A stretch of DNA of 64,000 nt from Moniliella sp. 'wahieum' (lineage: Eukaryota). The translations under genes and the position numbers were made by a program. The notes below the pieces were generated by a model. It was not told where the DNA came from. It was given only the letters and a program-made list of their open reading frames with translations, and did not search any database. The stretch covers positions 62,001-126,000 of the forward strand of contig RSEE01000133.1 in NCBI GenBank assembly GCA_003971905.1. The letters run 5' to 3'. Of this stretch, positions 9,129 to 60,090 are shown piece by piece; within the stretch, counting starts at the first letter, position 1; each line of letters begins with the position of its first letter.

Positions 9129-11549
9129 CTGGTTGGAGATTGAGAAGGAAGAGAAGGGAGGTAAGGGGGAGGGAGAGGGAGACGAGACAAAGGAGTGTCG
9201 AGAGGGCGATGGAACGATGGGCGGAAGGAGGGGGCGAGAGTAGGGGGGGAGGGGGTTATATAGTGGGATGAGATATACACAGGCGAGGAGGATAGGCTTT
9301 TGGCTCCCATCGCACCCTGTCCTAGCGGCAGGCAAGGCGTAAAGGGGGGCGGGGAGGCGCTGTGCGCAATGCGCGACACGGACGCCCAGGGGGAGGGAGG
9401 CAGTGCTAGTGCGGCAGCAGCGCGCGCGCAGGGAAGATGAAGAAGGGCTGAAGCTCTGAAGTTGCCACGGTTGGGTGAGATGATCGATGAGTGAGATGCG
9501 AGAGATAATATGGAGAGTGTCGGTGTGTGCGTGACTACTGGGCTGGCGCGCGGTGCGCAGTGGGTGTGGCTGGGGCATGGGGGCGGTGTGTATGCGTTGA
9601 TCCAGCGCTTGGGGTACATACTGCGGAGACTCGCGCGAGGCACGAGTTGGATGTCCAAGGCAGAAGGCGTCTCGCTGCCCCCGGCTCGGATGGGACACAC
9701 TGGCCCCCTGCTGGGATGGGCTGCGACACAGTGCGACACATTGCGACCCACAGACGGCGCGAGCGACCTAAAAAGCCCTGGGAGGCCCTGTCAACAAGCC
9801 GCCCGAGCAACTTCTCTGAGGTCTCACATCCTCGCACCTCTCCCCATCATCTGCATCATCCACCTTGCGTGTCATTGCGTCATCAATCCATCATCGACAC
9901 CTTCTATACCCCAGCCACGCCTTGGGCTCCATGGCCGGTGCATGACCGGTGACCGTGTCCTCTGGCATGGGTGCGATCTGCAGTGGCAGCCGAGGACCGC
10001 GGGGGCTGGCGCTGAAGCTGAGAAGGCACTGAAGGGCTGCAAGCATTCCATCTTCAAGCTTCAGTTCAGACTGAGTTAGCTCTCACGCGCGTCGTTGGCC
10101 ATAGAGTCATCTCGATCTGCATCATGCCACCCTCTCCATGTCCGCGGCGATGCAAAAAGGTGGCTGGACACGAAGTGTGACGCGTGAGGTGAGGCTTGAG
10201 AGCTTGAGCGCTTCAGCTTCAGTGCGCTGACACCGCCATTAATAACCGATGATGGTGAAGCCAGCGGAGCTGGAAGCTGGAAAAGCCAAGAGCTCGATGC
10301 TATGCACCACCCAGAAGGCCCTCGAGAGATGCCAGTGGCGATTCGGTCGATCATGTCGATCAGGACAGAGGTGGGCGGCCGAAGGCTAGACAGGACGTGG
10401 AGGGGGTACAGGGCGTTGGTATAGTAACCAGGCAGCACCAAGCGCCAAGCGCTAACCTGTAGAGCTTGATGCGCTTGAAAAGCTTACGAATAAGCTGTGT
10501 GGACGCGTATGTGTTGAACGTTGAACGTTGAACGTTGAACTCAACGTTGATCCATCCAATCGAATCGAATCCAATGTCCAATCCAATTCAATCCAATGCA
10601 TCGTACACAAACCAGCGAGGTCGTTTGTAGCCCTCCAGTTCTGACATAACACAGGATAGCACGTGCAGCGCAGCCACTCGCCACCAGGACGCTACTTGGG
10701 GGGAAATCAGATCCGCAACGAAGGACGATGGGACGATGGAACGGTGGAACGGTGGAACGGTGGAAGGTGGCTACGGTGGACCAGCACCCAAGCTGGGCCG
10801 TCGGCCCGGTGGTCTCCTAGTGTTGAACATAGGATGTCGAATGCGAACGTCCACAGTTCAAGGTGAACATTGACCGTCTGATGAAAGGCTCGCGATGGAA
10901 TGCGAGCCAGGCAGGGGAACTGAAGGTCTCAGTGGTGGTGATGCGCTCAGCTGTAATCAGGCGAACGTATACGCTGCACAGCGCAAACATCGAGGTCGTA
11001 TTGCACACGGTGGTCTGTCAAGAGGTCAAAAGGTATATCATGCCTATATGTCACAACACTTCCCTTCAGGCGTTTCTTTAAATTGAAGACTCGTCGCTGC
11101 TCGCCGTGAGCACTTTGCCTTGACTCTTAGTTCGAAAGCGGCTTTACAGTCAATCCCGTAGGATCCCCGAGAGCTCGGCCGAATGTTTGGGGCTCGCGGT
11201 CCCGTACATAGGCCAAGGTTATCACCCTTTGCCCCTTTTGACCTCCGAAGCCTCCAGTGCATACTCAGGCTTGTTTGAACATCTGTCTCAACCTAACCAC
11301 CACCACTGCGATTGCATTGCTATACGTTTCCAGAGGCTCTTCATCCAACCTCTCGGGTTCCTCCGGTCTTACACCGAAGTCGCAATCTATAGCAAACAGT
11401 AGTACCGACCCTTAACTTTTCACGGGGCAGTACTACCTAGACCTTCATCTTATGCGCAGGTGAAGCAGACATATGGTGCAATTCATGCATCGATACATAA
11501 GAGCCGAGTACTGTGTGCCACGAAGAGAGTACACACGTTTTGGGCTCAT

Positions 11550-13054
11550 TTAAAAGCCCATAGCAGCCCAGTTGGCCTCGACCTTGGCCTGGATGTCAGC
11601 GGGGAAGGAGCCCTTGACGCTGGCATCTTCCCAGTTGGGTCCGGTGGTGTACTCGACGGAAGGAGCGCGTCACAGACAATATTACCACCCACAAGAGGGT
11701 TAGCGTTGCCATGACCATTGTACGGGATGAGAGGGAACGCCGCCTGGTCATCAAAGTGGTACTCGTCCGTGCCCGGGCGGCAGCGCGTCGTGAACGCCCA
11801 CATAACATCGTTCCAGTTGAAGATATCAACGTCGTAGTCGCCAATCAGGATGAGCCGGTGAATGGTGTAGCCAGCCTTGTTGCCATACACGATGTTACCA
11901 ATCTTGTTGGCAAATTCTGCCGGGGTGGTCTTGAGCTCACGAAGCGCTTTTCCATCGATCTGAATCACGCACCAGGTAACGGTGCTCTGTTCCGGGCTGA
12001 AAGCCTGCTTGACGGGCACCCCATTCTCGCGCAACAGTTCACGGATCCGCACCGCGGCCAGGGGCCCAATCATCGTGTGCGTCTCATCGGTAATGCGCCC
12101 ACAGTTGCACACGGGCATGATCGCATTGTCGCGGTAGGTGACCACATCGACATTGTACACTGGCTGCGGGTGGCTATCGCCCGGGAACACGTAGCCGTGC
12201 ATCTCGCCGAACGGTCCCTCGGGCGCGGTGGCCGACGTGGAGATTGTGCCTTCAAACACGATTTCCGAGGATGCAGGGAGCAACAGGTCGTTCGTCTCGG
12301 CTTTCACCACCTCCACCGGCTGACCCGTCAGTGCACCAATGAAGCCCGACTCGCTCATGCCGCCAGGGATGGGCATGCTGGACGCCATGATGGCTGCCGG
12401 GGGCACACCAAAGGCCAGCACCCAAGGAACGTCCTTTCCAATTGCCTTCCATTGCGACCAAATTTGCCAAATGTGCTGCGGCTTGATAACTAGACCAACG
12501 AGATGCTTATTGTCGTACACCATGGCACGAGCGATAGACCAGTTGGTCCACTTGCCGTCCGGGGTTTGCACAATGTGCATGCCGTACGTCTGGATGTACT
12601 TGCCACCATCCGACTGGTGCAGCAGCGGCGCAGGCCATTCGTTGAGACGGATCGCGTCGCCAGTGAGCTTGTTCTGCTTGCACGGCCCAGTCTCTACCAC
12701 CTTGGGCGGAATGGCGGGCTCATGGAGCGCACTGGCCATCTTGTCGAGGATCTCCCCCCAGCCGGACGTGACGGGCAAGCCGAGGTGGCGTGCAAGCCGA
12801 CCGTACTTTTGCTTGGGGTCCGAACGGAGCGAGTTGGGGGCTCCCAAGATGCGGAAGAACCCGTCCTCTTGCTGGCCCTTGAGCTTGTTGAACAATGGAG
12901 CCTTTCCGTTGGTCTCGCATACTTTGCGGATAATCGCGCCGGCTTCCAGGTGGGGATCGACCTCGGTGTTGATCTCCACAATGTCGCCGTCAGCCTTGAG
13001 CGCTTCGACGTAGGCGCGGAAGTTGAGATGGGGGAGGGCGTTAGCGTCGGACAT
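11550..13054 (-). CDS. FDC1: Ferulic/cinnamic acid decarboxylase (UbiD family, prFMN-dependent)
   Basis: Intronless, starts [19 protein letters not shown]. Motifs [29 protein letters not shown] and GRITDETH. A one-base correction near 11660 restores the conserved end [12 protein letters not shown]...[19 protein letters not shown]. Confidence 0.96.
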
Positions 13055-14306
13055 GGTAGTGCAGGCGAGTATGTCTGGTGCTAGGGCGAGAGTGGTGTGT
13101 GGCGGTGATGTGGGAGGGAGAGATGGGGGCTGGGGATGGGTGTTGGTGCAGCTCCAAGGCTCTGGATGGGGTGCTATTATACTCGGGGTTCCCAGCCTAT
13201 GGGCATGCATCTGATGGTGCGGCTGTGACGTGGACAACATCCGTCTCTTCGGCGACACGGAGGCGTCGACTGCCGGGAGCGGATGAGGCGGTAAGGCGGG
13301 GTTTGATGGCGATGATGAAAAGCACCATTGCGCCCTGTCTCGGCTGCGTCATGAATTCATTGTGCCGCCAGAGCGGCATCCATGATAGAGATCATTTCTG
13401 GACGGAGGGCTGAGGCTGTGAAGCTTGAAGGGCAAAATGATCGGTCATACACACAAGATTGAGGGCCGAAGTTGAGGTCAATGCTTGGACACGTTCGATT
13501 CGATGGGCCAACAGAGTTCAGACCAACACAGGCTACAATGTGGTATGACCGCAGGGCCGGCCAGGGCGGCCACGGATGGTCACTGTGCCAACGTCACCTG
13601 CCACGGGGTCCGGCCAACCGGCCAAGATTGCAAGCGAGTTCAAAGCCAAATGGGCGCGGTGCATAATGAGCGGCAACATGAGCACGGCGTTAACCGCAAC
13701 AAGCTCGTTGGAATGGCGCAGCTGCCTCTTAATGTGGGTGGTGGGTGTGGCCGCAATGGGTGGCAATGACAGATGGGTGTGTTGTCAGCACGCCGATGCC
13801 GTTTGATGTGTGCCGGCAGATGGCGTCTGTGTTTTGCGCCTCGCCGGCAGTCCGGAGTCATTTGCTCCGGAAGGGGAATGCGCACCCGCCACGTCTTCAA
13901 CTTTCAAATCCAGTGTTGCATCGCACACTGCCGCCGAGCGCCCAGCCCGCTGCAAGTTGCAAGTTGCAGGGTGCTGACGAGCGCCGCATCACACATTGCC
14001 GCGTCGGAGGTTCGAACGGGCGAGGGCGATGGATCGAATGGTGCGGCAGAGGCTACCGGCAGCGCCGATAATGCTGCTGCCTGTCTTCTCTGGCCTGGTT
14101 TCGCATGCGGCCGAATACGCCCGTCTGACGTCTGTGGCGCATCGCTTGCATATCCTGTCTTTTTTTCGCCATACGCAGCCTTCCTGGCCGCACCACAATC
14201 CACCCGGCCCGCAGCAGGACAACGTAGACACCGCCATATATACCCACGCCGCCTCGATCCATGCCGTCGCTCTTGCTCTCCGTATCGCCCACCCGCCTCC
14301 ATTCGC
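13055..14306. promoter_or_regulatory. Shared divergent promoter of FDC1 and PAD1
   Basis: About 1.25 kb between head-to-head ATGs. TATA-like CATATATA near 14236. Several CGG/CCG pairs, e.g. CCGGCCAACCGG at 13610-13621. Confidence 0.65.
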
Positions 14307-15127
14307 ATGTCCCTGCTCACCGCCACCACCACCAGTGCCCTCCTCCGGCCGCTCCAGACCGGGCTCCGCGCCGCCCCCTCGCTTGCTGCCCGCGGCGTGC
14401 ACACGCCCCCTCCTGCCCCCCCCGCCCCTCAGCCCACCCCCACCACCAGTGCTGACACACCCACGCTCCCGGACCTGACGTCCCCTCCCAACGAGTATTT
14501 CAAGGTCGCCGCTTCGGCTGGGTCTTCGCGGCGCAAGAAAATCATTGTGGGGCTCACGGGAGCAACTGGGGCGCTGATTGGCGTACGCGCGCTCGAAGCA
14601 CTGCGCGAGCTCGATGTCGAGACGCACGCCATCCTGTCCAAATGGGGCCTGGCAACGCTCAAGTTCGAAACGTCCCTGACCGAGAAGGACATCCACAACG
14701 CGCCACCTACCTATACGGCATTAAGGATTTAGCTGCCGGTCTTTCCAGCGGCTCCTACCCCACCGATGGCATGATCATCGCCCCCTGTAGCATGCGTACC
14801 CTAGCAGCTACGCGGGCTGGTCTCTGCGACGACCTGGTGGTGCGTGCGGCCGATGTGTGCCTCAAAGAGCGCCGCAAACTCGTCATGGTCGTCCGCGAAA
14901 CGCCCCTTTCGGCGATTCATTTGGACAACATGCTTGCTCTCACCCATGCTGGCGCCGTCATGTTCCCTCCTGTGCCGGCCTTCTACCATTTCCCTGAAAA
15001 CATGGACGACGTGGTCAACCAAACGGTCGGTCGCTTGCTTGACCAGTTCGGGCTTGATTCGGGTCATTTCCGTCGCTGGCAGGGCGGACTGCGCAAGGAC
15101 AAGCAGCCCACCGGCGTATCAAGTTGA
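14307..15127 (+). CDS. PAD1: Flavin prenyltransferase (UbiX/Pad1) with a mitochondrial-type presequence
   Basis: KKIIVGLTGATGA, SSGSYPTDGMIIAPCSMRTLA, RAADVCLKERRKLVMVVRETPLSAIHL and PPVPAFY. Arg/Ser/Leu-rich, acid-free N-terminus. One frameshift near 14700. Confidence 0.96.
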
Positions 15128-16646: not shown

Positions 16647-19600
16647 TATGGGTGTGAGGTAGTTGGAGCGAGGGGGGCTTGAGGAGTGTTGGAGAAAGGA
16701 GGAAAAGATGTGGGATGAGGGATATGGACAGCGTTCGGCCAAGTTGCGGCGTATATATAGTAGTTGGCGCTAGGTCTTGATTCCCGGTAGCGTGGGGTAC
16801 TGACACTAGTCTTGATTTCCGCGGCGTGCATTGCATTGCAGTAACCATGTCATTGGCAGTGCTTGTTACGAAGGCTAGGACAAGGAAACGCTGATGGGGC
16901 TAAGTAAACTGGCCTGCTCATCTGCGGTGGGTGTTGCTTGTTGGCACCATACCCAGTTAGGGAACCAGGGGAATCGGCTGCGGATCATTATAGTGCGTGT
17001 CCCGCAGAAGAGACGGTTTCAGACCTAATGTCCGTTGCGGGGTGGGGCAACGTCGCGTCTTCTCTTACAAAAAACCCTTTGGCTCTTGCCATCTGTCATG
17101 GCGTGTGTCAAAGGAAGAGTCCTTGGCGTAGTTCTCGGTACCAATCGTATCCGGAACGCCGGCGAGTGCAGGCCACGTGATGCTCTTAGCACCGGTAATC
17201 CCCACGACAGAACTTATTCTGGCGTTTCCCCCATGGGCCAAAGTGGGGTATACGCCATGGTTGGCGGGGTTAAAAATGGCCAGTGTGTTCAAGTGGCCAA
17301 AGACTAATAGCGAACGATTGGCGACTAATACGCGGGACGAGTGGCTGTCTCCACAACCAAGTCTCTCTCGGGGCACCACAGCAGTGGCGCACCCCATCGC
17401 TAAACACTATTTGCCCGCGTGTATCAGGGTGGTCCCCCCGACGCCCCAGCATTCTTCGGATCCGGCCCTTTTCTGACGTGAACGCGTGAACGTTGAACTC
17501 AGCTTCAACGATGCATGATGCCTGATGAACCATCGAGGAACCCTCCGATGCACGTTCTCCATCAGTACGCATAGTGCGATGGGCAGTTTCACTATGCACG
17601 CAGCCACGCCTCTTTTCGGTGCGTCGGCTCCGATTCCTACGTGGAACATAAGGGTGTGTAACAGCGCTTGTGGCTGGTGGCGCTGTGGTGGCCAGTGAAG
17701 CAGGTGACCGGTGACCCCAGAGCGGAGACCGAAGACCACCGCACGGGCCATTCGCCCGTTGTGGCGGCCCACTCCTGTCGTCGTGTTGGCAACACCTAAC
17801 TTCAATCCGATTGACAGCTCTATATACGAAAACAACACGGTGGCATATATGCTCCTCGCGTTCATGTGGTGACAGAGGTCTCGCATCAGGCCGTGACCGG
17901 GTGACCTGCGCCGCAGGCCCGTCAAAGTTGTGACAAAAATGTCAGGTATATATCAGCCTTGCAGCCCGCCCCGTGGAGGTCCGTGGAGTCGCTCGTAACG
18001 CGTAAACGTTAAGCGTTAAACGTGTACGTTAAACCGCGAAGACGTGCCGCCTTGACGGCATGATGTTGAGCGACCGCCGGTGGCTCGTGCTTTGGCCAAC
18101 GTCCCTTCAGGTCCTCCTCAGGCCTCAGGCCTAGGAGTTCCGTTGCATTTTCTCTCTTGTTTTCCTTGTTCCGCTTAGCCTCTGGTGGCGACTCGCTGCT
18201 CGATGTTCCTCTGTAGGCGTTGCGGGTTGGCTTATACCACCAGCACACAAGCGTGATTGCATAATCGCCCTCGAGGACTGGCACCAGGACTCCAGACCTC
18301 ATAAACTTGGTCTTATTCTGCTTGAGTCCTTTCTCTTCTCTGTCCTATACTTCGGGTATATAGTAGGAATGGGTCGATGGCGGTCTGTGTCGCAGCATAT
18401 GCTATTCACCACGCCCGCTCCCCCCTTTTTCCTCGTCTTATTACGGGGCGCTCCGGTTATCTCCGGATGCTGAGCCCCGCAAGGACATCTCAGCCCATCA
18501 CACATCAGTCCTGTTAGTAGACTAGCGAGAGTGAGCTAGTCGACACCTTATCCATGCCGCTGATGATATCCGCGGACCGCCATGGTCGCATGGGCTTATC
18601 GGTACGATGCTTTGTTCCCATTCCGTCCATCAGTCTTGGCAAAGCCTTCCTGCTGCGCCCGACTATGCAGCGTCAGCGCCTTGAGGACACGGGGTGCGTT
18701 AGTCTTTACCGGTTACCTCTCTGGAAAGTGCACCGCATTTTGTTTATACCTGTCACGAGGCGCTTGGGGCCCCTGGTTCCTTCTGTTGTATATAAAGCAG
18801 CCATGTCTAAGGGTTACTAGCTGTGGTCCTGGTCGACCATCTGGCTTGGGTCTCCCCGACCACACGTTTCTCTCGCTCCTCCACCTTGTCCACTCGGGAT
18901 TCCCCCCATGACACGTCTGGCCAACTCCACTCCTCTATTAATACAAAGGTAAAGAGGGCCTATACTCTAACAGCTCATCTCGTCCCTGCTTCCATCCCCT
19001 TTGGCTGCGCCCGCACCCGTGACACGGACGGTCTATAAGTCGACTGCTTTTTTGGCCAGTAATTTTCCATCTATATGTAACAGCCGGGGCAAACGTGAGG
19101 GAGACCAAGGTATACGGGGGCGGTATCTCGGTATAAAGGGGGGGTAGGCATTTTAAATCTTAACCCGCTCGTGGTCTCGTCACGCGTCATTGTCAGCGCC
19201 ATCATGCATGCAGCTGATCACGCATCACGCATCGCGCTGTTCTATCCGACTCCTCTATGTTCTGCCCCTAACGGGCTCCTCTCTTGGAATAGATCCATCA
19301 CCTCCCTCTGTCTTTTCTTTCCGTAGGCTTTTGTCCTCGCATTTAACAGTCATTTCCGTCTCCTCCCGTATTATATCTGGAAAGTAGATGAGGAGGAAAG
19401 GGGGGTGGGGCATGATGCATGACATGAGCCACGACGTTGCCTTCTCCTTGAGCGTGTGGTGATTAATTAAGGACAAAGAGAAAAGGGGCTGCCGCGACGA
19501 GAGAAGAAAAGCGTGCGACACAGGCACAGCGACACAGGTGTGTGATCGAGGTCTATATCCTCTCCCTTATTGTAAAGAGTTAGTAATGTGGCAATGCGGA

Positions 19601-21612: not shown

Positions 21613-23264
21613 CATGCCGCCATCCGAGTCCGCCGGCAGACCGCCATCGGATCCCCCGGTATGGGAGTCAGACGGAATACGTACCCGATCCTGGAGACGG
21701 CCAAGAGCAGGCGGGTGCAGCGCATTCGACCCCCGCAAGTCGCCTCGCTGCGCTTTCCTTCTCCCCGCCCGAATGACCGGACACAGGCTGTCAAGCTGGT
21801 CTGGATCGCGCCATCGCTGGGCGAATGCCCTCCTCCATCCAGCTCTCGCCATCCAATCCAACTCAGAGCAAGGCGAGGGAATATAAAGAGACAGGGCGCA
21901 AGAGCAAGAGCAAGGACATGGTTAAAGGCAAGACCATGAGCAAGAAAGAGAGCAAAACCATCCCCCTCCTCCCACAAACGTTTGTCCTCTGCAGGCCGCG
22001 TTTACGTGCAGCCACTCCAACTGCCTCTTTTCTTTTCGCGCTTCTGGTCCTCGTCCGCGTCCCCGTTCGCCGACACTGACACTGACACTGACACGGATCA
22101 TTCCACTCCTCATGTGGCGAATGTGGATGCGTGCATGACGCGCAGGTAGGATGAGCATGCAGAGTGCGCGAAGGTGCACCTCCGTACCAAACGTGCCCCA
22201 AAGGGCTGGTGCGACCAGGTCCCAGCCACCCTGTCGCGACACGATTCCGCTGCGTGGGGTAAGATGAGTGCTACGCGCGTCTTGGCGGACACGCCGCGGG
22301 CTGGACTGTACGTCGACCTCGTGCGCAGCTGCCATGGAGATGGAGATGGCACGAACTGACGTTTGGTACGATCTTGGCACACCCAGCGCTTTGGTAGCTC
22401 CGACGCGGCGTGGGTCGAGGTAGCGTCGACGATGTACATCCGTCAACACAAAAGCTGTGGTGTCTCCAGCCGTCACTCAGTCTCGGCCAATTCGTTGGGC
22501 ACGCTGTGGCCCCTATGGCCAGCCAGCTGCCTGCTCAGCACCCTTTACTTGCCGTGTGCCTGTCCCTCCCTATTTGTTGTTGCTCGGACCGAACGAGCGT
22601 CTGAACTAGGATCGGATGGGGCGTCCGGTTTCCAATACGACTCCGACGAACGTGGCGGGAACACGGGCGTCTTCGCTTCGTCCGCTGGCATATGTCGACC
22701 GGCTCCCACATTCCCTGATCGAGAGCTCGGGCGCGCGAAACCTGCTTCCGCGCCCTCAGGGGTCACCCCCTTTCTCGCCCGCCAACCCTGCCCCGATCTC
22801 GCCCGGCTCACCCCGAAAGTGCTGGACACACGCGACTTGTCTTGGTGTCAAACGGTACGTTCTCGTCGTCTGTTTTTGCTTTGTGGGGGGAAGCCGACCC
22901 ACTGACCCTCCCGTTGCCCAGGGCATCGACTCGGCCTCAGGCCCAGCTCAAGCGCGCCCCCACAGGCAAGAAAGCCGCCAAAACCGCCACTGTCCCTCCT
23001 GCCTCGACGCCCGCTGTCCTTTCCCCTTCATCGTCCTCTTCTTCTTCTCTTCTCTCCTCTTAGGATCTCACTCCCATTCCGTCCGACACGGCCAGTGCGG
23101 GACTGGTGAAAGGCAAGGCTGGATGCCACGTCGCGGCCGCTACCTGTGAAACGCGGGAGGCAGCCAACGTCCGGCGGGGGAGCAGGCGGACAGTCTGGCA
23201 ACGATTAATGATGACTGGGCCTACGAGGCCGACGAGTACGACAAGGATCCACGCTCGTCAGTGA
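21613..23264 (+). CDS. Probable multi-exon gene of unknown function
   Basis: Clear intron 22856-22921 (GTACGT...CTGAC...CAG) and further polypyrimidine-AG acceptors near 22609 and 23063. No family recognised; the ends are uncertain. Confidence 0.3.
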
Positions 23265-27683: not shown

Positions 27684-28711
27684 ACTGGAAGCCGAGGCAG
27701 CCGCCAAAAAGGTTTCTGCCAAGGCGTAGGATCTCTACCCCATCTCCACTTGCGCACTTGCAGCAGCACACTGCCTCCGCCACGGCATTAGCTCCCTAGT
27801 CACTAGTCACTCTAGTCCCTCCTGGCGCTCCAACTCGTCACCCCACCACCCCTTTTGTAGCTTGCCCACGCTTGCCCAAGCTTGCAGGATCGGCAATCGA
27901 ATCGATTCCTGCTAAGACAAGAGCTCACTGCCGCATCACACCACGCCGCGTGCCACCCTGCGCAGGTAGGTAGGTAGACCACGGACTGACCCCCCCCCCC
28001 ACACTCCTGCCCCACTGCCCCACTGCCCCACTGCCCAGCCGTAGCCACGCCTTCGTATTCACCAGGCAGAAAAGAAAAGGTGGCAGAGACGGTTGCGTCT
28101 CGATGCGCCCTGGCCGCTACCACCTAGTCCAGCCCACAGCTGCAGGGATGAGATGGGGGGATCCAACAGGGACGAGGACCAGGTGCGAACTAGGTCCACC
28201 TCGGGGTTCCTTGGTCTTCTTCTCCACTTTGGGTCTTCCTTGCCGCAAACAGCAGATCCGGGGACAGAGACCGCGACCGCAGTCGCAGCCGCAACCGGTG
28301 CCCGGGAACCCTCCGTATTCCGTCCCTCTTTCGCCATGAGACTGAGAATTGAGAATTGAGACGAGCGCCGCTAGGGGCGCGGCGAGCACAGTGGTGGATG
28401 GCTAGGGACCAACAGTGACTCTAGTGACTAGTGACTGGGATCATACATCGTCCCAATGGGGGGTGCCCTGCGGGAAGGGTGCCATGTTAGATCTTAGATT
28501 ATCTGGCAGGCGGGGGTGCTACTATGATTAGTGACTAGAAGGAGCGAGGTCGATTCGATTATCCTGTCACATTGGTGTTAACTATAAGGGAAACGGCAGC
28601 CCGGCAGCGTTTTTGATCTCCTGCCCTCTCGTGCGTTTCGTACGACGGGAGCACTCGCGATCCGCAATCCATGCATCAGCTGCCACGCAGCCGTCAGATC
28701 CAGGCGAGGCG

Positions 28712-28756: not shown

Positions 28757-29625
28757 AGGCAAAGTGGGTGGGAGGTGAGGAAGGGAGTGGGGAGCCACCA
28801 GTCGTCAAGCAACGTCAGATCTCAGAGGGGAATAAAGCCTAAGGAGATAGGTGAGATCCGAGAGAGGGAGATGCAGCGAGCAGGGAGTGTGTGGTAGGGA
28901 GTGTGCAGTAGTGCGCAGCCTGGGAGCGCAACCCTTCTAGGCGAACGTCACGCGTCACCGGTCACCCGATCAACTGAGTACGCAGACTGAGTACACTGAG
29001 TAGCGTAAACTAGTAACTGAGTACCGACAAGTCCCCAGACGGGCCGGGCCGGGGAACGCTCGCAACCGCACTGCTCCGCAGTTGCTTGCTGGCTTTTGCT
29101 GTGCAGTGCAGTCGCCAGGGTGGACTTGTTGCTTGGCTTTCTTCAGACTTCAGGCGAAAGAGGGAGTTCCACCGAGAATCTGCGCGTATTGGGCCGACAG
29201 GGCGTGCGGGCGAAGACAAGAGGCCAGTGACTAGCCGGGGACGAGGGAGCTGTCTAGTGACTACGCAGCGCAGTCGCCAGCCCGTCGCGAGTACTCAGTA
29301 CTCGGTCTGCTCCAGCCCGGCGCACGGCCGGCACGGGCGGGGGAGGGCTGTGGGGAGGCGGTGGGGGTGGTGAGACACGGCGTGCAGTGTGCTGGGCTAC
29401 GGGTTGAGCAGTACATGCTATTATACTGTACGCACTAAGCCCTGGGGTTTGCGCGCGAAATCGACCGTTTGCATTGGACCGAAAACCGCTCGCCTCGACC
29501 CCGGCCGAGCGGTCGGTGGGGGAGTGATGGGGTTCGGCCCTTAGGGTGTATATATACCCCTCGGGCGTCCAGCTGGCACCTAGTGCCAACCGACCGACCG
29601 ACCCACTGCTGCTAGGCCGCCCCTG

Positions 29626-34600: not shown

Positions 34601-34886
34601 TCGCGGGCGCCTCGAGGGCAAAGTAGTTGTCGTCAATGCCGAGGCCGCGGTAAAACCACTGGACTTCGGGTTCGACAAGACTGGCGGGGATAAAGCCCTT
34701 GCTGTGCAGCAGCTCGACCACCTTGGCTGCCTGCTCGTCCTTGCCCTTGAAGACGGGCGTGGCGTAGCCGGCTTGGTTGGGGATGATGTGGTCGGCGGGC
34801 GTGGGGGCGGCGGGGGGTGGCTGTGTCGGCTTGAGCGCGGCGACGGGCGGGGACGCCCGAGGCGGCGGTGGCGGGGGGGGAGACAT
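31640..34886 (-). CDS. GDH2: NAD-specific glutamate dehydrogenase
   Basis: FRGFHVRFADIARGGIRIV, KNKDIPEGGSKG, FFGPDEGTA, KSFTTGK, QTGGPDGDLGSNEI, FVPCGGRPE and IVEGANLF. Intron about 34030-34138. A few frameshifts. Confidence 0.96.
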
Positions 34887-36539
34887 GAACCCTACGAAGA
34901 CGGGGGAGGCGTCGTGGCGAGCGGAGAGGACGCGGGCGAGGCGAGACGCTTAAATACAGACGCGAGGGGCGCAGTGGGGTCTGCGCGACGGATGGCTGTG
35001 GAGGGGCTGGATGGAATAGTGAGTACTGAGTGCTCTCTTCAGCGGAAGGCTGCCCAGGATGGAGACGGCGGTCTGTGCGCAGCCGAGGCGGGCGACAGAG
35101 GGATGTGGCGCCGTGTGCGGGAGGCGGGGGGCACTTGCGGACACAGACACGCCAGCGGGGCAAGCCGGCCCGCGATTTGCCGTGCGTCGGCCGTGCGGGC
35201 GCACAGGAGCGCACTGGATGGGCGCCCCAACCGGCGCCCGCCAGGCACACACCACGACGACCCTGGCCACCCCAGCCACACCCAAGACACCGCACGCGAG
35301 AGAGGCCGCACTGGCCAGCCCTGCCGCCCGCCCCCATCCATCCACCGCATCCCTCCCAAGCCCATCCACAGCCATGTCACCATGTCACCGCCTCTGACGA
35401 GCTGACCCTCGGCGGGTGCGCTCGGAGCGCGGGGAAAGACGGCGCGCGGGGCGGGCCATGGCGCCAGTGCCTCACCAATACACAGACCCCCTTCCGATGC
35501 CGATCCTCTCTTCCCGTCGCCACGGCCAGACGGAAGCAATGGCGAGCGGCGTTTAGCACGTGGCGTTTGGCGTTTGGCGTTTGGGGCGGAGCGCGTAGCG
35601 CTTATTAGCGCACCGACCAGCGTCAGTAACCTAGTAACCATTGGGGGCATCGGGCAAATAGCGGGGGAGTGGCGACTTGCACGGCCCAAACGTCTCACCC
35701 GCCTGCGCGCCCATGTGGGGAACGCACTACGCCAGAGCCCCGCGCAATGTTGCCATGCGCTCCAAGGGTTCACACTGACACGTCGACACCACGTCCACGC
35801 AAATGCCTTACACGTTACCCTCCGGCATTGCGTCAGCGCAACACACCACCGACAGAGACGCTCTGCGCTACCCCCCCCTCTTGCAGCTTAACGCCTTAAC
35901 GCCGCTCCTCTCGGCGTCTTCCACCTTCGGGACCTTTTGGAACAGGTATTTTCATCGTCACCCCCACTACAGAACGCGACAAGACCGTGTGGGGCATCGC
36001 CACGGGGGAGACAGTGACATGTGTGCTTCGTCCGTGGCAAGCCAACTGTCACGGTCCTCTTAGCTAATCAGGTAAATCTTCTCCCCGCTCTTCGCCGATC
36101 CTGTTCTCCTTTCTCCTACCAGTGCATCCTTTGCTTTCCTTGGTGCTTGGCCTCACTCGTCTTGCCCGACTCTTACACCGAGGGGGGGAATGATGGGATG
36201 CGCCCATCCACCGCGACGGAGGCGCACAGGAGACGATGCATCTGGGGGATGTGGGGGGAGAGCTAGTAGTGATGCGAGTGACGATGACCGGTGACCGGTG
36301 ACCACTCAAGAAGGGAGATGGCCAACCAAAGCCAAATCGAACATTCGACTTTGGATTCTCCAGCGCCGGGCGGCGCTTGGCATTCCGCTCGCGGCGGGCG
36401 GAGTTACGTGGCAAGCCCGGACATCGGACATCGGACATGGCACATGGGACATGGGCCTGGGCAGGAAAAAAAACCCAACGCGGCGCTCTTCTCGCTTTCT
36501 CGTCTCCCCCACCACCACCTTCCCCATCTCGATCGCGGC

Positions 36540-37305
<766 letters not shown>

Positions 37306-47000: not shown

Positions 47001-48812
47001 GCCGGCAGGGGCTTAGGATTATCGCTTCCTAGTTACGCCGTCGTGTCCCCGCTTCTCCTGGTCATAGGGGGGGCGAGGGGAGGCGTGGGGAGGCACTGAT
47101 GGAGAGGCTCAGTTATGACGCGTGAGACCCACGCGCTCACGGTGCAGTTCACCGGTCAGATCTCAGATTTCAGATCTCAGAGCGAACTAGGAACTAGTCA
47201 GTACTCAGTATGTACTTTCCTACGAGTACGTACCCAGGACGCAGTGAGTTACTAGTTGCTAGTTGCTGGTTGGTAGTTACTTGCTAGTCACTAGTAGCTA
47301 GTCACTAGTGAGGATTTGATCTGGCGCGTGGATCAAATTGATGTGCTCCTGAGCGTGTCGCAAGGGTGTGTGGCTTGCTGATTTGTTCGGCCTCAGTTGC
47401 CACGTACCCAGCGTGCAACCCGGCTGAAAGGGGGACGGGCGGAAGGCAGTAGTACGCAGTGGCAGAGGCCGGGTGGGAACGGGTGACTTGGGTATGCGTC
47501 CGCCACCCCTGGGAGAGGCAGGCACGCGATGGCACTTTTTTCTCCTGTTTGGTCGGAATGAAAGCGCGACGGGACATGTCCATGCCAGCGCACAGACGCT
47601 GCAGGGCTGCTTGCTTGGCGGGGGCAGGCCTCGGGGCAAGGCAGGCGACATGGATGAGCACCAGCGCGGGTGGCGGTGGCGCGTCTCTTTGTGGTGCTGC
47701 GCCCTCGCCTCGTGGCAGCTGAGCGCTGACGGGATGGATGACGTCGCACGGGGTTTGTCACGCGAGGTCACGTGGCTGGCCCACCGCCCAAGCCGGCGGG
47801 GTGCGCGCCGAGGCTGCGGGCTGGTGGGTGCGCGTGGCCGGAACGCCATCCGGGCCTCCGCCCGCACCGCGCAGACGCCGCGCAAAGCCATTAAAGGGTT
47901 TGGCCAGGTTTGGCACCCTGTGAGGAGTGCCTGGGACGGTGTGTGCCATGCGCTGTGTCTGCGTCTGCGTCTGTCGCCGCGGCGTCTTTCTCTGTTGATT
48001 GATATGTTGATGTGCCCCCGCATTGCATCGCATCTTTTACACCGCCTCTGCGTCCGCGAGAGGGGTTGTGCGGCCCATGTGACTCTCCATGCCTCTCCAA
48101 GCAATGCAGATTGAATTGAATGGGCGCCCACCGACAAGCCGAGCAGGCGGGCCCTGGTGGCGAGGCCTTAGGGCGTGGACAGAGAGGGGAAGACGGCAGA
48201 GAGCGTGCGGCCTGGCCAGACAAAACGGCACTGGGGCCGCCCACGGGGCGCCCCAAGCGAGGCCATGGCCGCAGAGGCCCCAACGGTGGGGTCCAGCCAG
48301 CCGACGCCGCCCCCCCCGCGCGCAGCCCATGGCGGCCATGGCGGCGGCGGCGGCGGCGGCAGGGTGATTGGGGCGTGCGGGCGGCTGCGAGGCAGACAGA
48401 GCGTGCCTGGCGATAATCGATAGTCGATAGTCCGATGATAGAGTTATCGATAAGCCAGCGCCGGCAGCCGCCCCGACCACCCCGCCCAGGCGTGGCGCCA
48501 GTGTGTGCGCCGCTGCTGCTGCGTGCTGCCTGCCGCCATCTCCGAATCACCGCCCAGCAGACGCGCCCCCGGCCCCCGCACCACACCAGTGTCGCCCCGC
48601 CGCCTCGTGTGATGTCTTCTCTTCTCTGCGCTCTTCCACTCCAGCATTCAGTACTCGGTAAAAGTACGCAAGTACGATGGCCGTGCTTGGATATTAAAGC
48701 CGCTCGCCACCCCTCCTCCCGTCCATCACCATCGCCACCGCCACCGCCACCGCATCCCACCCCCTCCCTTCCTCATCCACCTCCCCCCCCACCCACCGCC
48801 ACCCCCTCCACC

Positions 48813-50913: not shown

Positions 50914-52650
50914 TGCCCGGCTCGACTCGGCTTGGGTCCCGTGGGGACTCGGCTCGGCCTCGGCTCGGCTTGGGATGCCAGCTGAGTTGGGTGTCCAGTT
51001 GGCTGGTTGGCGAGCTTCCTAATTTGCTTCCCTCCCCACCTCTCCTGCCCTCCTGCCCCTGCCTGTCGCGGCGAGTGCGATCCGATTCGTTCGCGACGCG
51101 CACGGCGCACCACAGTGTAATTATTAATGGTTACGTTTTTCTGCACGCTCCCTCCACGCTCTACTTTGTGATCAGGAAGGTGAACATCTTGACCAGGCAG
51201 TACTTCCAAGGTAGGAGCATGAATCGGATCGGCATTGGAGTGGATGGATGGATGGGATGGTCGATGGATGGCGGCGACAGAGATGGATGGATGCGTTCGT
51301 TACACGGCCGTCACATTCCCAGTTCCATCCGATCGTTCTATCATCCCGACCTGAACGTCGTGAACATGTGAAGTGTTTGACGCTAGCCACAGTGACTAGT
51401 TGGTAAATGCTAACTAGTACCATGGGGCCCGTCCTGACAATGACTACTCACCGGTGACTAGTGAGGCCAGTGAGCTAGTGGGGCCCCCGCAGGCCTGAGG
51501 CCGCGACGTGATGCATGATGGATGATCGATGATCCGCCGGTGGATAACAATGGTGCATGATATGATCGATGATCCTATTTGGCCGGCGTTGTCCCGCGTG
51601 TGGGGCTAATCGGCGCGCTAATTGCCATCGATAAGCAATCGATCGAATTTCCCCCCTCCACCATCCCCACCTGTCGCCGCCATCGCATCAGCCTCAGGCC
51701 TGAGCCTCAGGCCTCAGGATAGATTAGATGGCGAGTGTGTGTTCCGAGTCGAGAGACGTTAGTGAAGTTAGTGCAAAGCTATTGTTGTGCTTAAAGCTTT
51801 CCAACTTGAAGTTCAAGACGTTCAAGACGTTCAAGACGTTCAAGCAAGCCTCAGGCCCGAGGCGCGAGAAGATAACCGGGATAATCGATAACCGGCCGAA
51901 CCGTGATCGAAAGAGGGCGGATGGAGCCTGGCGGTTCCGAGATCCGAGCTGTGTACGCGCCCAAAGGAGTGGCTTTTCATCTTCTTCTCGACCGACCCAG
52001 ACCATCCCTCCAGATCACACAAGTCACGTGCCCCTGCTTCAAGCTCCTCTCGCCACAGCGCCACAGTAATAATGCCCGGGCGATTGTAGAGGGAGCGAGG
52101 CGCGAGGACGAGGAGCGAGGCGCGAGCCCTCCAGAGCGAGGTGGAGTCGGCCTGGGAGCGCACCGAGTATACTCAGTACGCACAGGCCCCCCACCCAGCC
52201 AGCAGGGGGGGAGTGTGCTTGCTTGCGCCACTTGCCTTGTTACACACACTCGCCCCGCGCGTCCCCTTTTTGCTCTCCCAGCTGGGCAGCCATCGTGAAG
52301 CTTGAATAAGCCTGAAGCTTTTGAGCTCTGAGACTGCAACACCAGCCGTGCTCTCCGTGCTCGGCCGTGCGCCCTCGGCCCTCGCTGCCCTGGCGGAGGA
52401 GAATCGTTCCTGCGACGTCTGAGAGCGGGCGACGGCGGCCGTGGCAAGACATAGGCAACACGCGCGAGTCTGCTATCCGTACTTGAGCTTGATCTCTGCC
52501 AGGTGCCTGCAGCCATCGCTCGCGGCCCTGGTGGGGACAACGACCTTGGTGGGCGGCGGCCGAAGGGCTTGGAAAAGGCAAGAGGCTCAATGGGATCGGC
52601 GGAGGGTGCCAACCAACAGCAGTAAGTATACCCGCGATGCATGGCGCAAC

Positions 52651-52808
52651 TGTTGACATCCGTCCTAGGACCGCGCGGACCCTGAGTCACGTGAGTCAGC
52701 TTTCATTCCTTCCGAGCTCGCACCAGTCTTCTGGACGAGTCAGTCGCAGAGCTTCTTAGTCCATACGACGTTCAGTGCTCACATTCTGTGGTAGTAGCGA
52801 GGCCGACA
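52651..52808 (+). repeat. 5' LTR (158 bp)
   Basis: Matches the 3' LTR apart from three single-base homopolymer deletions. Confidence 0.97.
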
Positions 52809-52862
52809 GAGTTACATCCTTATCTGCTCATCCCTGAGCTGGCCAAAACTACACCCACAACC

Positions 52863-54097
52863 ATGGGCGCCAACGCTAACACCGATCTCTCGGTCAGCGA
52901 CACCACAATGGTGAACAAGCGCGATTACTGGACACCAACCGGTCGCGATCCGCCACCGATTGGCACCGACAACGAGGAACTCATGATGCTTTGCGCCGAA
53001 GCGCACCTGTGGTTCAAGAAGACGAACGACATCGATGTCGTTAAGAAGATCACAGAGCTATACACGACAGAGCCGAGGCTGGATGGAAGACGAACCTACG
53101 TCTATCACGACAAACTGGGTTCGACGGGCTAACGAATTTGTGGTGCAAAACATCCACCAAATGGAAACTCAACCCAACAACTTTGGGGGCACCTACAGGC
53201 GCAGCCTCGCGACCCGAGTACGACCTTTACAGATCACTACGCGAGTCTCCCACCAAGAATATCAAGTGGCCTGATCTGAACAAAGACCCGTCCGCCTACA
53301 GCGCTGGAAGACGATTTCTCTTCGCGATAACAGATGCCCACCCCCACGCAAGCGACGTCGTCCAGAATGGTCGCAGCTCCCGCTACTTCACCGAGGACCT
53401 CGACAGACGCTTGCACAACCTTCTTAGGGAAGCCATGCCGTCAACCCTCTTCCGGACGATCCGCACCCACCACGAAATATCATGCACCCAGGACACGCTG
53501 AACATGCTGCGTCAGCGGTATGGATATACGCCTACCGCAAACAGAGGGCCTCTACTCATTCGCTACTTTTCGGCCGACCAAGGAAACCGATCGGGTCGAG
53601 ACTACCTCGACTACATGGAAGAGATCAGTGCAAGCCTGACGCGAGCGGGCATCCCACTTACGGAAGAGCAGGAACGCACTGGGATCCTACTCGGCTTACG
53701 CGACATGAGCATTCGCCAGCGTGAAGAGCGCTCGAGTCTAGACAAGTTACGGCAGGCCGTGATGGACATACCAGCCGCCACGTATCCCGGTGGAGAAAGG
53801 AAGAGAAACGGAGGCAAGCCGGTCAACGGAGGAACGCCTTGGACTCGACCCGACAGCGGGGGACGACCCACCAGCGGGGGAAAAAACTCCAGCGGGGGCA
53901 AAGCCGGCGACGACAACCTCGCGGACACAAAGACCAAGGGGCAAGACCGCACCAACCAACCCTGGCGCAGCGCGACGTCTAATAAACCTGTTGTCCCTCC
54001 GCGCAACCCAGGCCGAGCCAACGCTCACGTCGCTCAGAGAGCGAGCTCTCCCGAGTCTGAAGTGATTGACGTTGATGCGGGCACAGCTGACTACTAG
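52863..54097 (+). CDS. gag: Retrotransposon Gag
   Basis: ATG 52863, PRLDG...NW motif and a UBN2-like helical region (YLDYMEEISASLTRAGIPLTEEQERTGILLGL). Two apparent frameshifts near 53105-53190. Ends at TAG 54095-54097. Confidence 0.8.
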
Positions 54098-57000
54098 GAA
54101 CTCGGGGGCGAAATGCGAATCATCCGGGCATTATATGACAGTGGGGCATTCCCATCCATTTGGAAAGACAAATCCGTCTTCACATCCATGACCCCTTGCG
54201 ACGACGAGATAGAGGTTGCTAACGGGACACATGTAAAGGCGGAAGGACGAGGCACGGCCACAATCCGTATCCGATGCTTAGGAGGACACCAAATGGAGAT
54301 AAAACTCCCCAACAGCCTATACATGCCCCGTTTCAGCCGAAATCTCGTCAGTGTAGCACACCTGTCGAACACCGGAATCGCATCATACTTCGCCCCACAC
54401 CAGAAGGGTATCTGGCTTGGTAACCCAGGATCCACCCTACGAAAAGTAACCGGCAGTGACTATCAATTCACGATCTTACACAACCCGCGAACGCCACCCA
54501 CACCCCTGCGGGCCATGGCGACCAAACCGATCAAACCGGCCGACCCACCCTCAACCCCAAACTCCCTCGCAGCATCCCTGGCCCTGGACCACGTCTCTAA
54601 AGCCCACAAACGCTGGAACCACGCAGCCATCGACCTCCTCCCCTGGCTTACACGATCGGAAACCGCAGGCCTCCGCGTCACAGCCAAGCATATCTCCCTC
54701 TGTCGTTCAGAGTGGGATTGCCCAACATGCGCGGTGGCACTAGCGACAGCATCGCCCCATCCGAGCCGGGACCGCCTCCGATCCAAAAGACCTTTCGAGG
54801 TCCTCCACGTCGACGTAGTAGACCTCCCCCGGGTAACCGGCATGGGGCACGGATACGCCCTCGTCGCCGTTGATGACTTCACGCGGTACGTCTTCACCAC
54901 AGCGATCCCGACAAAGGGCGCTGCAACGAAGGAACTGCGGAACCTCATATTGCGGGAGCAACGCTACGGCCCGGACAGACTGCTGCGGACTTTGCGCACG
55001 GACAACGCCCCCGAATTGACAAGCGCACTGCAACCTTTTCTGGACGAGCAAGGCATCACGTCAGAACGGACAATCCCGGGGCAGAGTGCTAGCAACGGTG
55101 TGGCTGAGCGTGCCATCCGAACCATAACGACTCGTGCAAGGCAGTTGCTCTTGGGTACAGGTCTTCCGACGTCGGACTGGTGGGAACACAGCCTCCACGC
55201 TGCGTGCTTCACCCAAAACCAAATGCCACTCAAAACATCCGGGGAAGACAACAAATCGCGATTTGAGCGATACAAAGGCCACGCATACTCGTTACCGATG
55301 CAACCCTTTGGCCGCTTGCATACCTCCATCTGCCCGAGTCACGCCGCGAGCACAAGCTCAGCGCGCGGGCAGAGGAAGGTATGCTGGTAGGATACCACCA
55401 TCAGCGCGGATCAAAGGGATGGCTCTTCGCCACATACCAACCATCCCTGGGTACCTTCACCTACCGCTGGTCGAAACCGTACAAATGGGGCAACGCCATC
55501 TACCCCCATCTCCACCCCGACCACTTCCCACCCGACATCTCCAAATCACCTCAAATTAAAATCGACAGTGAAAAAGACGCTAACCCTACTCCGCCAGCCG
55601 CGGCAGCACCCATGCCCCGAACCGCCGCCACACCCCAGACACCCGCTCCCACCACCACCCCCCCTCCGCGCCGCTACCCCCTCCGCCAGCGCACCACCCG
55701 CACCTCCCTCGACCTGCACACACTCCCAATCGCTGACGACCCCACCGACACGACCTACCATGCTCGTGCTGCAGCCGCCACGCCCCACTGCGCCGCACCA
55801 GAGATCGGCATCGCCCGCCCCCTACCTGACACATCCGCCCCCCCGTTTGCCGACACAGTTCAACCTCCCGAATACGCCGCCATGACTGCTCTCAGCGCAC
55901 CCATCCACCCGGACACGGTTCAGCTCACCAAGGATGGCGTACCCCTCGCTCCCAAGACGCTCAAGGGTCTCGAGACTCACCCCTCCTTTGCCATGGTCAA
56001 GCAGGCTATGGCCGACGAGGTGGCCACACTCGCGCGATACGGCACCTACGAGGCTACGTACCCACCACCGGGTGCACAAATCCTCATAGGACTATGGCGC
56101 ATCACCACAAAGACGGACGCCGAGGGCCGGTTCCTGCGCCACCGCGCGCGCTTTGTCGCGGGCGGACACCAACAATCGGCCGAGACTTGGGGCCAGACGT
56201 TCGCACCATCGGTGCGCACACCTGCCATCCTGACCCTCGTCGTGCTGGCCGAGAAGTATAAGTTTGGCCTCTTCTCGGCGGACGTCAATGCAGCGTACCT
56301 GAACGCCCCCCTCGAAGAAGCAGTCTACATCCGCCCACCCCCCTACTTCCCCGAAGCGGGTGGTCGCGTGTGGCGTCTCAAGAAGAGTCTATACGGGCTA
56401 CATCAGAGCGGAGCAAACTGGGCACGATACATCCGGAACCTGCTGCGTGACAAGCTCGGCTTCACGCAAAGCTTGACCGAGCCCTGCTTGTTCGTGCGCG
56501 CTGCACCACCGGGTGAGCAGATCCTCCTGGCGGTCCACACCGACGATCTGCTCCTCGCATGCAAGTCACACCAAAAGTACGAGGAGTTTATGGCCGAGAT
56601 AAACACACACATTGATGTTCGTGGTAACGGTCCCCTTCACTACCACCTGGGATGCCAATACGATCGGATCGGTGGGGAGCTGTACCTGAGCCAACCAAAG
56701 TTCATCGAGGAAGTGGTGGCAAAGCACCACATCAAAGCCCCGTGGATCCGGACTCTCCCACATCCCGTACGGATGATACCGCCCCGTGCCGACCCTGAAC
56801 CCCCATCCCTCCCAGCCTTGCGCAAGGCATATCAGGGGAAGATCGGATCGGGACTGTGGGCTGCACGAATGGGCCGGCCTGACTCCCTCTTCGCTATCAC
56901 GGCCCTCAGCAGAGCCGCTGCCGACCCATCGCAGCAGCATCATCAAGCAGTCGATGACTTCCTTCGCTACCTGTACCATACTCGAGGAAAGGGCCTGAGG

Positions 57001-57540
57001 TTGACCCCAACATCAGATGCACCGGCCATTGCGCTGTATACAGATTCCGACTTGGCGGGAGATCCCATCCAGGCACGCTCCACATCTGGATGCCTACTGA
57101 TGGTGTACGGTGTGCCGGTGTCGTGGCGATCCATTCTTCAGCCGAAGAGCGTTACCAGTACCGCCGCCGCCGAATATACGGCAGGATATGATGGACTGGT
57201 TGACGCCAACTATGTCAAGAACATCATGATCGAGCTTGGGGCCATCGGCGAGGGTACACCCATTCATTGGTATTGCGACAATAAGTCTGTCGTCGATCTC
57301 GCCCACAAATTTGGCAGCACCGGCAAGCTCCGAGAGCTGAAGATCCGGTACCACAATGTACGGCAACACGTGGACTCGGGCGAGGCCATACTTGTACACA
57401 TCCCCGGCGAAAGGAACCCAGCGGACGTCCTCACCAAGCCTCTCGGCCGTCCCGCCCTGACAAGCCATCTTGCTCAACTCCGCGTCGAGGAGATGGATCC
57501 AGTCCACATGACTGGGCCCTCCGGTCAGCGGGGGTGTTGA
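54098..57540 (+). CDS. pol: Retrotransposon Pol (PR-IN-RT-RNase H)
   Basis: Protease LYDSGA. Integrase HKRWNH..CPTC, LHVD, RTDNAPE and SNGVAER. RT ADVNAAYL, LKKSLYGL and HTDD. RNase H YTDSD, AEY, CDN and NPADVLTK. One frameshift near 55310-55380. The stop TGA lies inside the 3' LTR. Confidence 0.96.
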
Positions 57541-57695
57541 CATCCGTCCTAGGACCGCGCGGACCCTGAGTCACGTGAGTCAGCTTTCATTCCTTCCGAG
57601 CTCGCACCAGTCTTCTGGACGAGTCAGTCGCAGAAGCTTCTTAGTCCAATACGACGTTCAGTGCTCACATTCTGTGGGTAGTAGCGAGGCCGACA
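57535..57695 (+). repeat. 3' LTR (161 bp)
   Basis: TGTTGACATCC...GGCCGACA followed by the TSD GCAAC. Confidence 0.97.
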
Positions 57696-59443: not shown

Positions 59444-60090
59444 ACCTAGTCAGCGCATGTGGACTGTCAGTATAACCGCGTCAACCTCCCCCCCCCCCCC
59501 ACCGTGCCAGGGAAACTGTGCATCTGTTCCATTTCTTGCTTGTGCTCACGATTGGTTTCAGAAGCCTTGTTGCTTGCCTGCTTACGCCCCCTTCCCGCCT
59601 CCCCTCCCTGCCTGCCCTCCCCGGGCGTTCCCGCTTGTGTTTGTACGACGCTATACCTTTTCTCCGTCTGAACTTGAACGCTATACCTTTATCGGAACGC
59701 CCCATTTGCTGTGGGTGTTTTTTTTTTCCTTCTTTTTTCGTCCATCGCCCCTCTTGTTGTTCGAGTCTCGGTGGCGACTAGCGATGCCCATGGAGGCATG
59801 CTCGATAGGGTGTAGGACCAGGAGAATCGCCGCCGTTTCGTATAGCAATAGGGCAGCGCGCTTCACAGTTGGCTTTGCGCAGCCGAATCCAGCCGCTCTC
59901 GCTGCTTGTGCGGCGGGCAGTAGGGTTGGGCAACCCTAGCGCGCCGCTGCCGTCGGGCGCGGGGGCACTCCTCGACGTGTGTGCGCTGGGACGAGTGACC
60001 GGTGACCATCCCTCGATAGCACGCTGGACGCGTCGCGCCCTGCTCCCACCTTCTCTGCTCCTCCTCCTCTGGGCTGCTCTGCGCGCGGCC

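Follow-up and report, generated by a model that had tools for sequence, protein, structure and literature searches.

The 64,000-nucleotide stretch of DNA analysed here (the window) covers positions 62001-126000 of contig C133 (RSEE01000133.1) of Moniliella sp. 'wahieum', in an assembly of 69.5 Mb and 223 contigs. Its non-coding DNA carries many copies of a short motif in which two TNA trimers, usually TCA or TGA, enclose a 4-bp palindrome. These copies are best read as donor-site scars of cut-and-paste transposons of the EnSpm/CACTA type (CMCT clade) with an unusual 7-bp target-site duplication (TSD), a reading given a probability of roughly 0.8. The arrangement follows a simple rule: a target abTNAcd becomes abTNA-cd-rc(cd)-TNAcd, where rc is the reverse complement (right-flank form), or the mirror form using ab (left-flank form). 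The net gain is seven bases (+7); related forms gain eight or nine (+8, +9). A second copy of the region, 89% identical across 140 kb, lies on contig C126, which is taken as the sister subgenome. The principal sites, in window coordinates, are as follows.

9481..60005, no strand assigned: span of the 56 TNA-palindrome-TNA matches whose trimers share a middle base (41 loci once collapsed), none in the tested open reading frame (ORF) stretches
9845..9860, plus strand: +9 scar, CATCATC twice (both full 7-mers) with an inverted 2-nt TG between
9943..9952, plus strand: right-flank scar TGA-CCGG-TGA-cc
10054..10063, plus strand: left-flank scar ct-TCA-AGCT-TCA
10515..10538, plus strand: array (TGA-ACGT)3
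17487..17496, plus strand: scar following the right-flank rule; C126 is shorter by 7 nt
17892..17906, plus strand: +8 scar CGTGA CCGGG TGACC; single target CGTGACC in C126
18706..18715, plus strand: TTA-framed scar; single target CTTTACC in C126
21439..21448, plus strand: TAA-framed scar TAA-GATC-TAA; single target AGTAAGA in C126
28712..28756, plus strand: array (TCAAGCT)6.7; C126 has three units fewer (slippage or repeated hits)
28948..28964, plus strand: two-core chain cg-TCA-CGCG-TCA-CCGG-TCA-cc, a left-flank plus a right-flank event at a single target
36285..36301, plus strand: array (TGA-CCGG)2-TGA
36402..36408, plus strand: unscarred target AGTTACG; left-flank scar TTA-CTAG-TTA in C126
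40883..40892, plus strand: left-flank scar ac-TCA-GTAC-TCA; single target ACTCACC in C126
46495..46510, minus strand: +9 scar CGTCAAA-TT-CGTCAAA
46872..46895, plus strand: array (TGA-TGCA)3-TGA
47149..47311, plus strand: dense scar cluster; two additional TGA-GGCC units in C126 after 47309
51509..51532, plus strand: two adjacent +7 events with TGCA and TCGA cores, neither in C126
51811..51844, minus strand: period-9 array built of +9 scars
52296..52305, plus strand: TGA-AGCT-TGA; C126 has one unit more

Wider counts come from a 464-kb non-redundant set of four contigs (C133, C1, C72 and C51; 0.7% of the assembly). Single-base details are uncertain because the assembly contains many 1-bp indels (798 among the clean C133/C126 indels). 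C72 and C51 align to the region nearly only over GDH2 and are of no use as outgroups, and three public contig sets, which cover mostly exons, did not polarize the C133/C126 indels.

The motif had been noticed from the sequence alone, and all 32 positions listed in that original prediction do read T[CG]A, a 4-bp palindrome and T[CG]A. The window contains 106 TSA-N4-TSA matches (S, C or G), of which 54 have a palindromic core (36 once tandem copies are collapsed), compared with 2.6-3.2 (maximum 10) in 60 block shuffles each preserving the 2-, 3- or 4-lets of the window; the palindromic excess is genuine. Palindromic N6 spacers show no excess in the window (1 versus 0.5-0.8 in shuffles) and palindromic N2 spacers a mild one (17 versus 8.6-12.6). 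The predicted TSA frame holds for the sites that had been listed, but the true frame is TNA, since TAA..TAA and TTA..TTA sites also conform (8 in the window and 25 across 200 kb of C1); over 269 sites the middle base is C 117 times, G 107, T 25 and A 20. Both trimers share their middle base at 48 of the 54 window sites, where about 1.5 would be expected, so that the frame is a direct repeat. The core, described earlier as variable, does differ between sites; it is not free, however, being copied from the flank. Of the 32 original sites, 24 have the same middle base and a flank-predicted core, four the same middle base without such a core, and four opposite middle bases.

The same pattern extends beyond the window. 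In 200 kb of C1 the core is palindromic in 116 of 264 TSA-N4-TSA matches, and in the 464-kb set this is true of 314 of 647 TNA-N4-TNA matches, compared with 14/355 for ANT, 60/945 for CNG and 62/1,115 for GNC. Genome-wide, one 17-mer array pattern gives 2,457 matches and its reversed control none. Collapsing leaves 252 loci in 464 kb, which would amount to roughly 38,000 over the assembly. Sites are clustered, with 47% of inter-site gaps below 300 bp versus 16% for randomly drawn TSA sites. The claim that they are non-coding also stands: ORF stretches totalling 17,660 bp contain 453 of the 2,022 TNA trimers in the window and, on that share, should include about 12 of the 56 sites, but they include none.

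In the window the flank rule fits 48/56 sites, or 25/31 if only isolated sites are counted; for C1 the corresponding figures are 119/135 and 65/79. When duplication lengths of 4-7 and inversion lengths of 1-3 were scanned, one geometry dominated, a 5-bp repeat beginning with TNA plus two inverted bases (348/537, versus about 6% by chance); most of the remaining geometries lay near chance. Junctions with non-palindromic flanks in the 464-kb set give the +7 form in 190 of 1,294 cases versus 5 of 710 for ANT anchors, and the +9 form in 25 of 632 versus 2 of 518. With permuted spacers as control, +8 forms have 50 matches versus 2.2, and the +9 form, two whole 7-mers with an inverted dinucleotide between them, has 25 (in 23 places) versus 0.5. 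The two flanks together predict six of the eight chains that contain two different cores. Partial complementarity of the two presumed overhangs is not enriched (29 and 23, versus 35 and 34 permuted).

Comparison of the subgenomes shows that the motif arises by mutation. Among 39 clean net-7 indels between C133 and C126, 11 fit the rule at TNA with an exact core, nine of which are not explicable as plain duplication and two of which are. Of the others, three conform to the rule with TCC/GGA at the centre, one duplicates seven bases exactly at TNA, and the remainder fit loosely or not at all. Three of 12 net-8 indels also fit. In a long terminal repeat (LTR) family of seven copies, one copy carries a private rule-conforming +7, which identifies the change as an insertion; another copy has a +11 with no clean fit. 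The motif is present within LTR copies and within a transposon. It is also labile: motif columns of the 85 alignable sites (of 103) differ between C133 and C126 by 6.5% mismatches and 16.6% gaps, versus 5.8% and 5.0% in the flanks, and 36 of the 85 are intact in C126, versus 52% of flanking 10-mers.

Elements with matching target duplications occur elsewhere in the assembly. Family 2 is bounded by CTCACTGA..TCAGTGAG, with termini CTCACTG..CAGTGAG whose border is set by the 7-bp TSD; its ends bear subterminal repeats of short units, and subterminal tandem repeats are a feature of EnSpm/CACTA elements. The family was first found with patterns that required TNA, so that five flanks are biased, and then by a flank-blind DNA search, in which 10 of 10 flanks are TNA-centred. 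In five of the seven two-ended elements an exact TSD of 7 bp, centred on TNA, is present and the outer flanks differ: GATCATG on C23, CATCAAC on C35, GTTGATG on both C34 and C29 (whose outer flanks differ) and GATGATG on C20. The C35 site, located by synteny in sister contig C46, is empty there and reads a single CATCAAC. The C23 copy is 4,968 bp long, with 78-bp terminal inverted repeats (TIRs) at 90% identity. Sister alleles of one family-2 end, L158 (C23:153503) and L159 (C8:478694), differ by an extra CT at the junction, which may stem from slippage, an assembly error or the inversion of flank bases. A de novo scan of 778 kb for TIRs with a TSD gave no convincing element and no hit at TSD length 7; hits at other lengths were set aside as chance or inverted paralogous genes.

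Family 1 has CACAGTG ends. Its remnant on C17 terminates in CACTGTG, and GTTCAAC comes next. Searching by pattern, blind to the flank, gave 18 such ends, all of them single, from 12 independent sites; nine of the 12 sit flush on NN-TNA-NN, two on NN-TNA-NN plus an inverted dinucleotide, and one has no simple fit, against a background TNA rate of 0.033 per position. The TSD of this family is presumably 7 bp. The ends that follow an inverted dinucleotide, L114 (C20:522364) and L116/L120 (C29, C53), resemble a rejoined one-ended cut; the C20 remnant at C20:522364 consists of 17 bp between two CCTGAGG. No partner end lies within 1.5 kb of any of the 18 hits, or within 5-13 kb at seven loci. Lists of TNANN-CACAGTGA sites contained 42 versus 18 and 57 versus 28 control matches and no convergent pair; an apparent 29-bp mini-element lacks a TSD and was rejected. 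A nonamer like that of recombination signal sequences (RSSs) was not visible in family-1 ends by inspection.

Transposase remnants connect both families with EnSpm. PF02992 matches two loci in the assembly, and the family-1 remnant on C17 does so with an E-value of 8.3e-14. The C23 copy of family 2 matches a profile of EnSpm relatives (independent E-value 4.3e-12). The C(2)C motif is invariant, the C17 copy included, and an HxLLH-like stretch can be read in the C34 and C23 frames, both broken. The C34 remnant (L070, C34:513200-516700) is a second, divergent EnSpm-like transposase with long open frames about 8 kb from a family-2 element; it has no recognizable ends and no sister copy. Queries with distant EnSpm proteins gave no further copies, and a search for longer homologues gave none. 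A structure model of the C17 fragment (predicted local distance difference test score, pLDDT, 72) comes closest to RAG1 (Z 8.3, root-mean-square deviation 5.3, 221 aligned), followed by BbRAGL (Z 7.2) and HzTransib (Z 5.4); unrelated folds score below 4. A sequence search of the PDB returned no solved relative of an EnSpm/CACTA-type transposase.

These observations can be combined in a general mechanism. (i) Insertion at abTNAcd duplicates all seven bases, as family 2 shows; a symmetric transposase with T at -5 and A at -3 from the junction would yield a duplication of 7 bp with TNA at its centre. (ii) At excision, the element would be cut exactly at its border with the flank, and each flank sealed as a hairpin in the manner of RAG1 and Transib. 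(iii) The host would open these hairpins at a point 2 nt beyond the tip, so that each end has a 4-nt overhang, cd-rc(cd) on one and rc(ab)-ab on the other. In V(D)J recombination, Artemis likewise opens the hairpin at +2. (iv) End joining would then overlap the two overhangs and keep one. Full overlap (4) would give TNA-palindrome-TNA, the main product, with a net gain of seven; overlaps of 3 and 2 would give the +8 and +9 forms. All three products are present, and the path to them is probable rather than observed. (v) Each scar offers a fresh NN-TNA-NN target, often a palindromic one, and re-insertion there would account for the two-core chains and for arrays, which slippage may extend; as expected from such re-targeting, fully palindromic flanks are over-represented among scars (46/179, versus 14 permuted). 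(vi) A gain of seven shifts the reading frame, so that scars would persist only in non-coding DNA.

The flank hairpin, its opening position and the joining path are deduced from product shapes and the fold. A related group of sites comprises perfect 10-bp palindromes with opposite middle bases, at window positions 21382, 39488, 47302 and 51694 (six versus about 1.7 expected); possibly these are longer inverted copies from hairpins opened farther from the tip. A fuller account, tentative and standing a little below an even chance, is that the elements belong to a CMCT lineage not described before, whose TSD is 7 bp long and TNA-centred and whose chemistry is RAG-like. This lineage would excise by flank hairpinning, occasionally cut at one end that is rejoined with P nucleotides, re-target its own palindromic scars and build heptamer microsatellites, and would have left stereotyped insertions to the number of about 35,000.

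Several observations weigh against an origin of the motif in EnSpm/CACTA-type excision. Most of the clean net-7 indels, 28 of 39, do not fit the rule at TNA, and none of the 14 net-9 indels fits. Forms of +10 and +11, with inverted bases from both sides, number zero in the 464-kb junction scan. The choice of core-donating flank, a weak point, is biased among 133 isolated scars of that set (wins to losses: TC 16:2, AG 11:3, CT 1:9, TG 9:20). Only about 30 element ends were found, compared with some 38,000 extrapolated scars, and neither family has an end in C133 or C126. Scars are TWA (W, A or T) in 45 of 269 cases (17%), whereas each of the 26 TNA-centred element flanks tabulated is TSA; agents other than the two families seen may therefore be involved. 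Two of the seven two-ended family-2 elements (L147/L148 on C11; L142 on C38) have flanks that are TNA-centred and do not match, which suggests recombination between copies. No allele pair with an element in one subgenome and a scar in the other was found: the only clean sister site, that of C35 in C46, is empty, at the C23 site the C8 allele has been rearranged, and the sister sites of C35 and C20 were missed by pattern search and that of C34 by DNA search. No intact transposase was found, every copy seen being broken, and the C23 frames alone give no Pfam hit. The scores of the C17 model are moderate and speak for a fold, not for chemistry.

Other explanations must be set against this record. 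The original prediction offered binding arrays for a dimeric or oligomeric factor or the footprint of template switching, and held that ordinary slippage does not explain the motif. Half-site arrays for a dimeric DNA-binding protein would suit the clustered and non-coding sites (0/56 in ORFs). However, that exclusion follows from frameshifting, the flank predicts the core, sites also lie inside LTRs and a transposon, and the motif is not conserved above its flanks and is more prone to indels than they are; this disposes of the binding-array reading, which is now very improbable. Slippage is refuted as the origin, as had been anticipated, since 215 of 256 runs are single units and nine polymorphic events add an inverted dinucleotide that it cannot make. 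It is a plausible extender of existing arrays: the long arrays at 28712 and 52296 differ by whole units between the subgenomes, and plain 7-bp duplications are common. A Tc1/mariner-like element, which makes a 3-bp duplication and leaves 2 nt of each TIR, would produce a direct TNA repeat around a palindromic 4-nt core automatically; yet the core varies with the host flank instead of repeating a fixed end of the element, and the elements found have a 7-bp TSD, so that the likelihood of such an origin is close to negligible.

The mutational branch of the earlier alternative was correct in kind, but generic template switching leaves the single geometry and the 7-bp TNA-centred TSDs of the elements unexplained. 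A host process more broadly, whether template switching in replication or repair or a host nuclease at TNA, might write the 5+2 insertion while transposons merely share the TNA preference. The roughly thousandfold excess of scars over known element ends, the missing element-versus-scar allele pair and the three clear net-7 indels that obey the rule at TCC/GGA centres would all be at home in such a scheme. It is nevertheless improbable: the +9 form repeats a whole 7-mer twice, exactly the elements' TSD, two family-1 ends have the inverted 2 nt beside the element itself, and most other duplication/inversion geometries are near chance. It is hardly likely, too, that the scars are footprints of another element with a 7-bp TSD. 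Such TSDs are produced by hAT7 and Kyakuja in basidiomycetes (PMC12730594); moreover, the TWA-centred scars are unmatched by the element flanks seen, and the hAT dimerization domain PF05699 had no match here or in any of 14 control genomes, which makes that search uninformative. Against this, Ac/Ds footprints have the complement of the neighbouring base at their centre (PMC5873905), whereas here the palindrome is even and no base is lost, and TIRs and EnSpm-like remnants mark the elements in which a TNA-centred 7-bp TSD was found.

Other features of the window stand apart from the scars. A divergent pair of FDC1 (UbiD) and PAD1-like genes occupies positions 11546-14732, and GDH2 lies at 31640-34815. 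The best named hits of FDC1 are ascomycete (67%) while those of GDH2 point to Ustilaginomycotina (75-79% identity), so that horizontal gain of FDC1 is possible on sequence similarity. Further copies of GDH2 occur on C126 (91%) and, at about 79-80%, on C72, C123, C51 and C131, hinting at older duplication or hybridization. A Copia-type LTR retrotransposon at 52651-57695, with a 5-bp TSD, is not in C126, and solo LTRs lie near 19190-19345 and 36047-36178. Two further stretches not in C126, at 27965-28677 (711 bp) and 22290-23133 (842 bp), have 3-6-bp junction homology; the former contains several scars.

If EnSpm/CACTA-type excision is indeed responsible, one rule would cover a conspicuous layer of non-coding DNA and the birth of many heptamer repeats, although excision footprints are usually rare, varied and difficult to detect in a genome. 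The scar shape predicts a transposase chemistry of border cutting and flank hairpinning like that of RAG1, and the target-duplication range of CMCT would be widened from 2-5 bp so as to include 7 bp. With thousands of scars whose flanks are known, one could measure directly how fungal end joining opens hairpins and chooses between overhangs. Motif finders would take such scars for regulatory elements. The fuller lineage account, if true, would describe a self-feeding, repeat-writing engine, provide genome-scale evidence for flank hairpinning by EnSpm-type elements and offer a natural library of hairpin-opening and end-joining outcomes.

The closest known relatives are the EnSpm/CACTA elements of the CMCT clade, such as CNIRT6 and rust EnSpm. 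Fungal EnSpm elements have CAC..GTG ends and 3-bp TSDs, the TSD range of CMCT is 2-5 bp, and the transposases have motifs in common with RAG1 (PMC12730594); CNIRT6 of Cryptococcus makes a 3-bp duplication and CNEST a TA duplication (PMC12810828). The elements described here share with them a Tnp2/PF02992 transposase with C(2)C, TIRs, the CAC..GTG ends of family 1 and the subterminal repeats of family 2. They differ in their 7-bp, TNA-centred TSD, in family 2, which starts CTCACTG and has no CA..TG or CAC..GTG termini, and in a stereotyped scar found genome-wide. Searches of the open-licence literature turned up no account of the scar pattern or of a 7-bp EnSpm TSD; the TSD figures and tables in the supplement of PMC12730594 could list such families. 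For the Ustilago heptamer arrays that the original prediction likened to the motif, a search of that literature likewise yielded nothing pertinent.

The likeness to RAG1 and Transib lies in an even palindrome that closes the flank without loss of a base, in the CACAGTG heptamer of family-1 ends, which is that of the RSS (PMC1131882), and in the best structural matches, RAG1, BbRAGL and HzTransib. Transib, however, has a 5-bp TSD (PMC1131882), no nonamer at a 12/23 spacer is visible here, and one product dominates in place of diverse joints. In plants, S. cerevisiae and C. albicans, donor sites vacated by Ac/Ds elements of the hAT group likewise retain palindromic insertions that derive from hairpins; these are heterogeneous (28 types in 128) and centred on the complement of the adjacent base (PMC5873905), in contrast to the even palindrome and single dominant form seen here. 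hAT7 and Kyakuja share the 7-bp TSD and belong to different transposase families (PMC12730594), and Kyakuja (KDZ) is without TIRs, whereas the C23 element has 78-bp TIRs. Excision polymorphisms in rice were likewise found by genome comparison; their footprints are mostly deletions or filler (8/94 perfect; PMC4423477), with no single rule and no seeded arrays. The feature is real and genome-wide; it behaves as a donor-site joint of the RAG/Transib kind, and its makers are most likely EnSpm-related elements that depart from their family in the length of the TSD.

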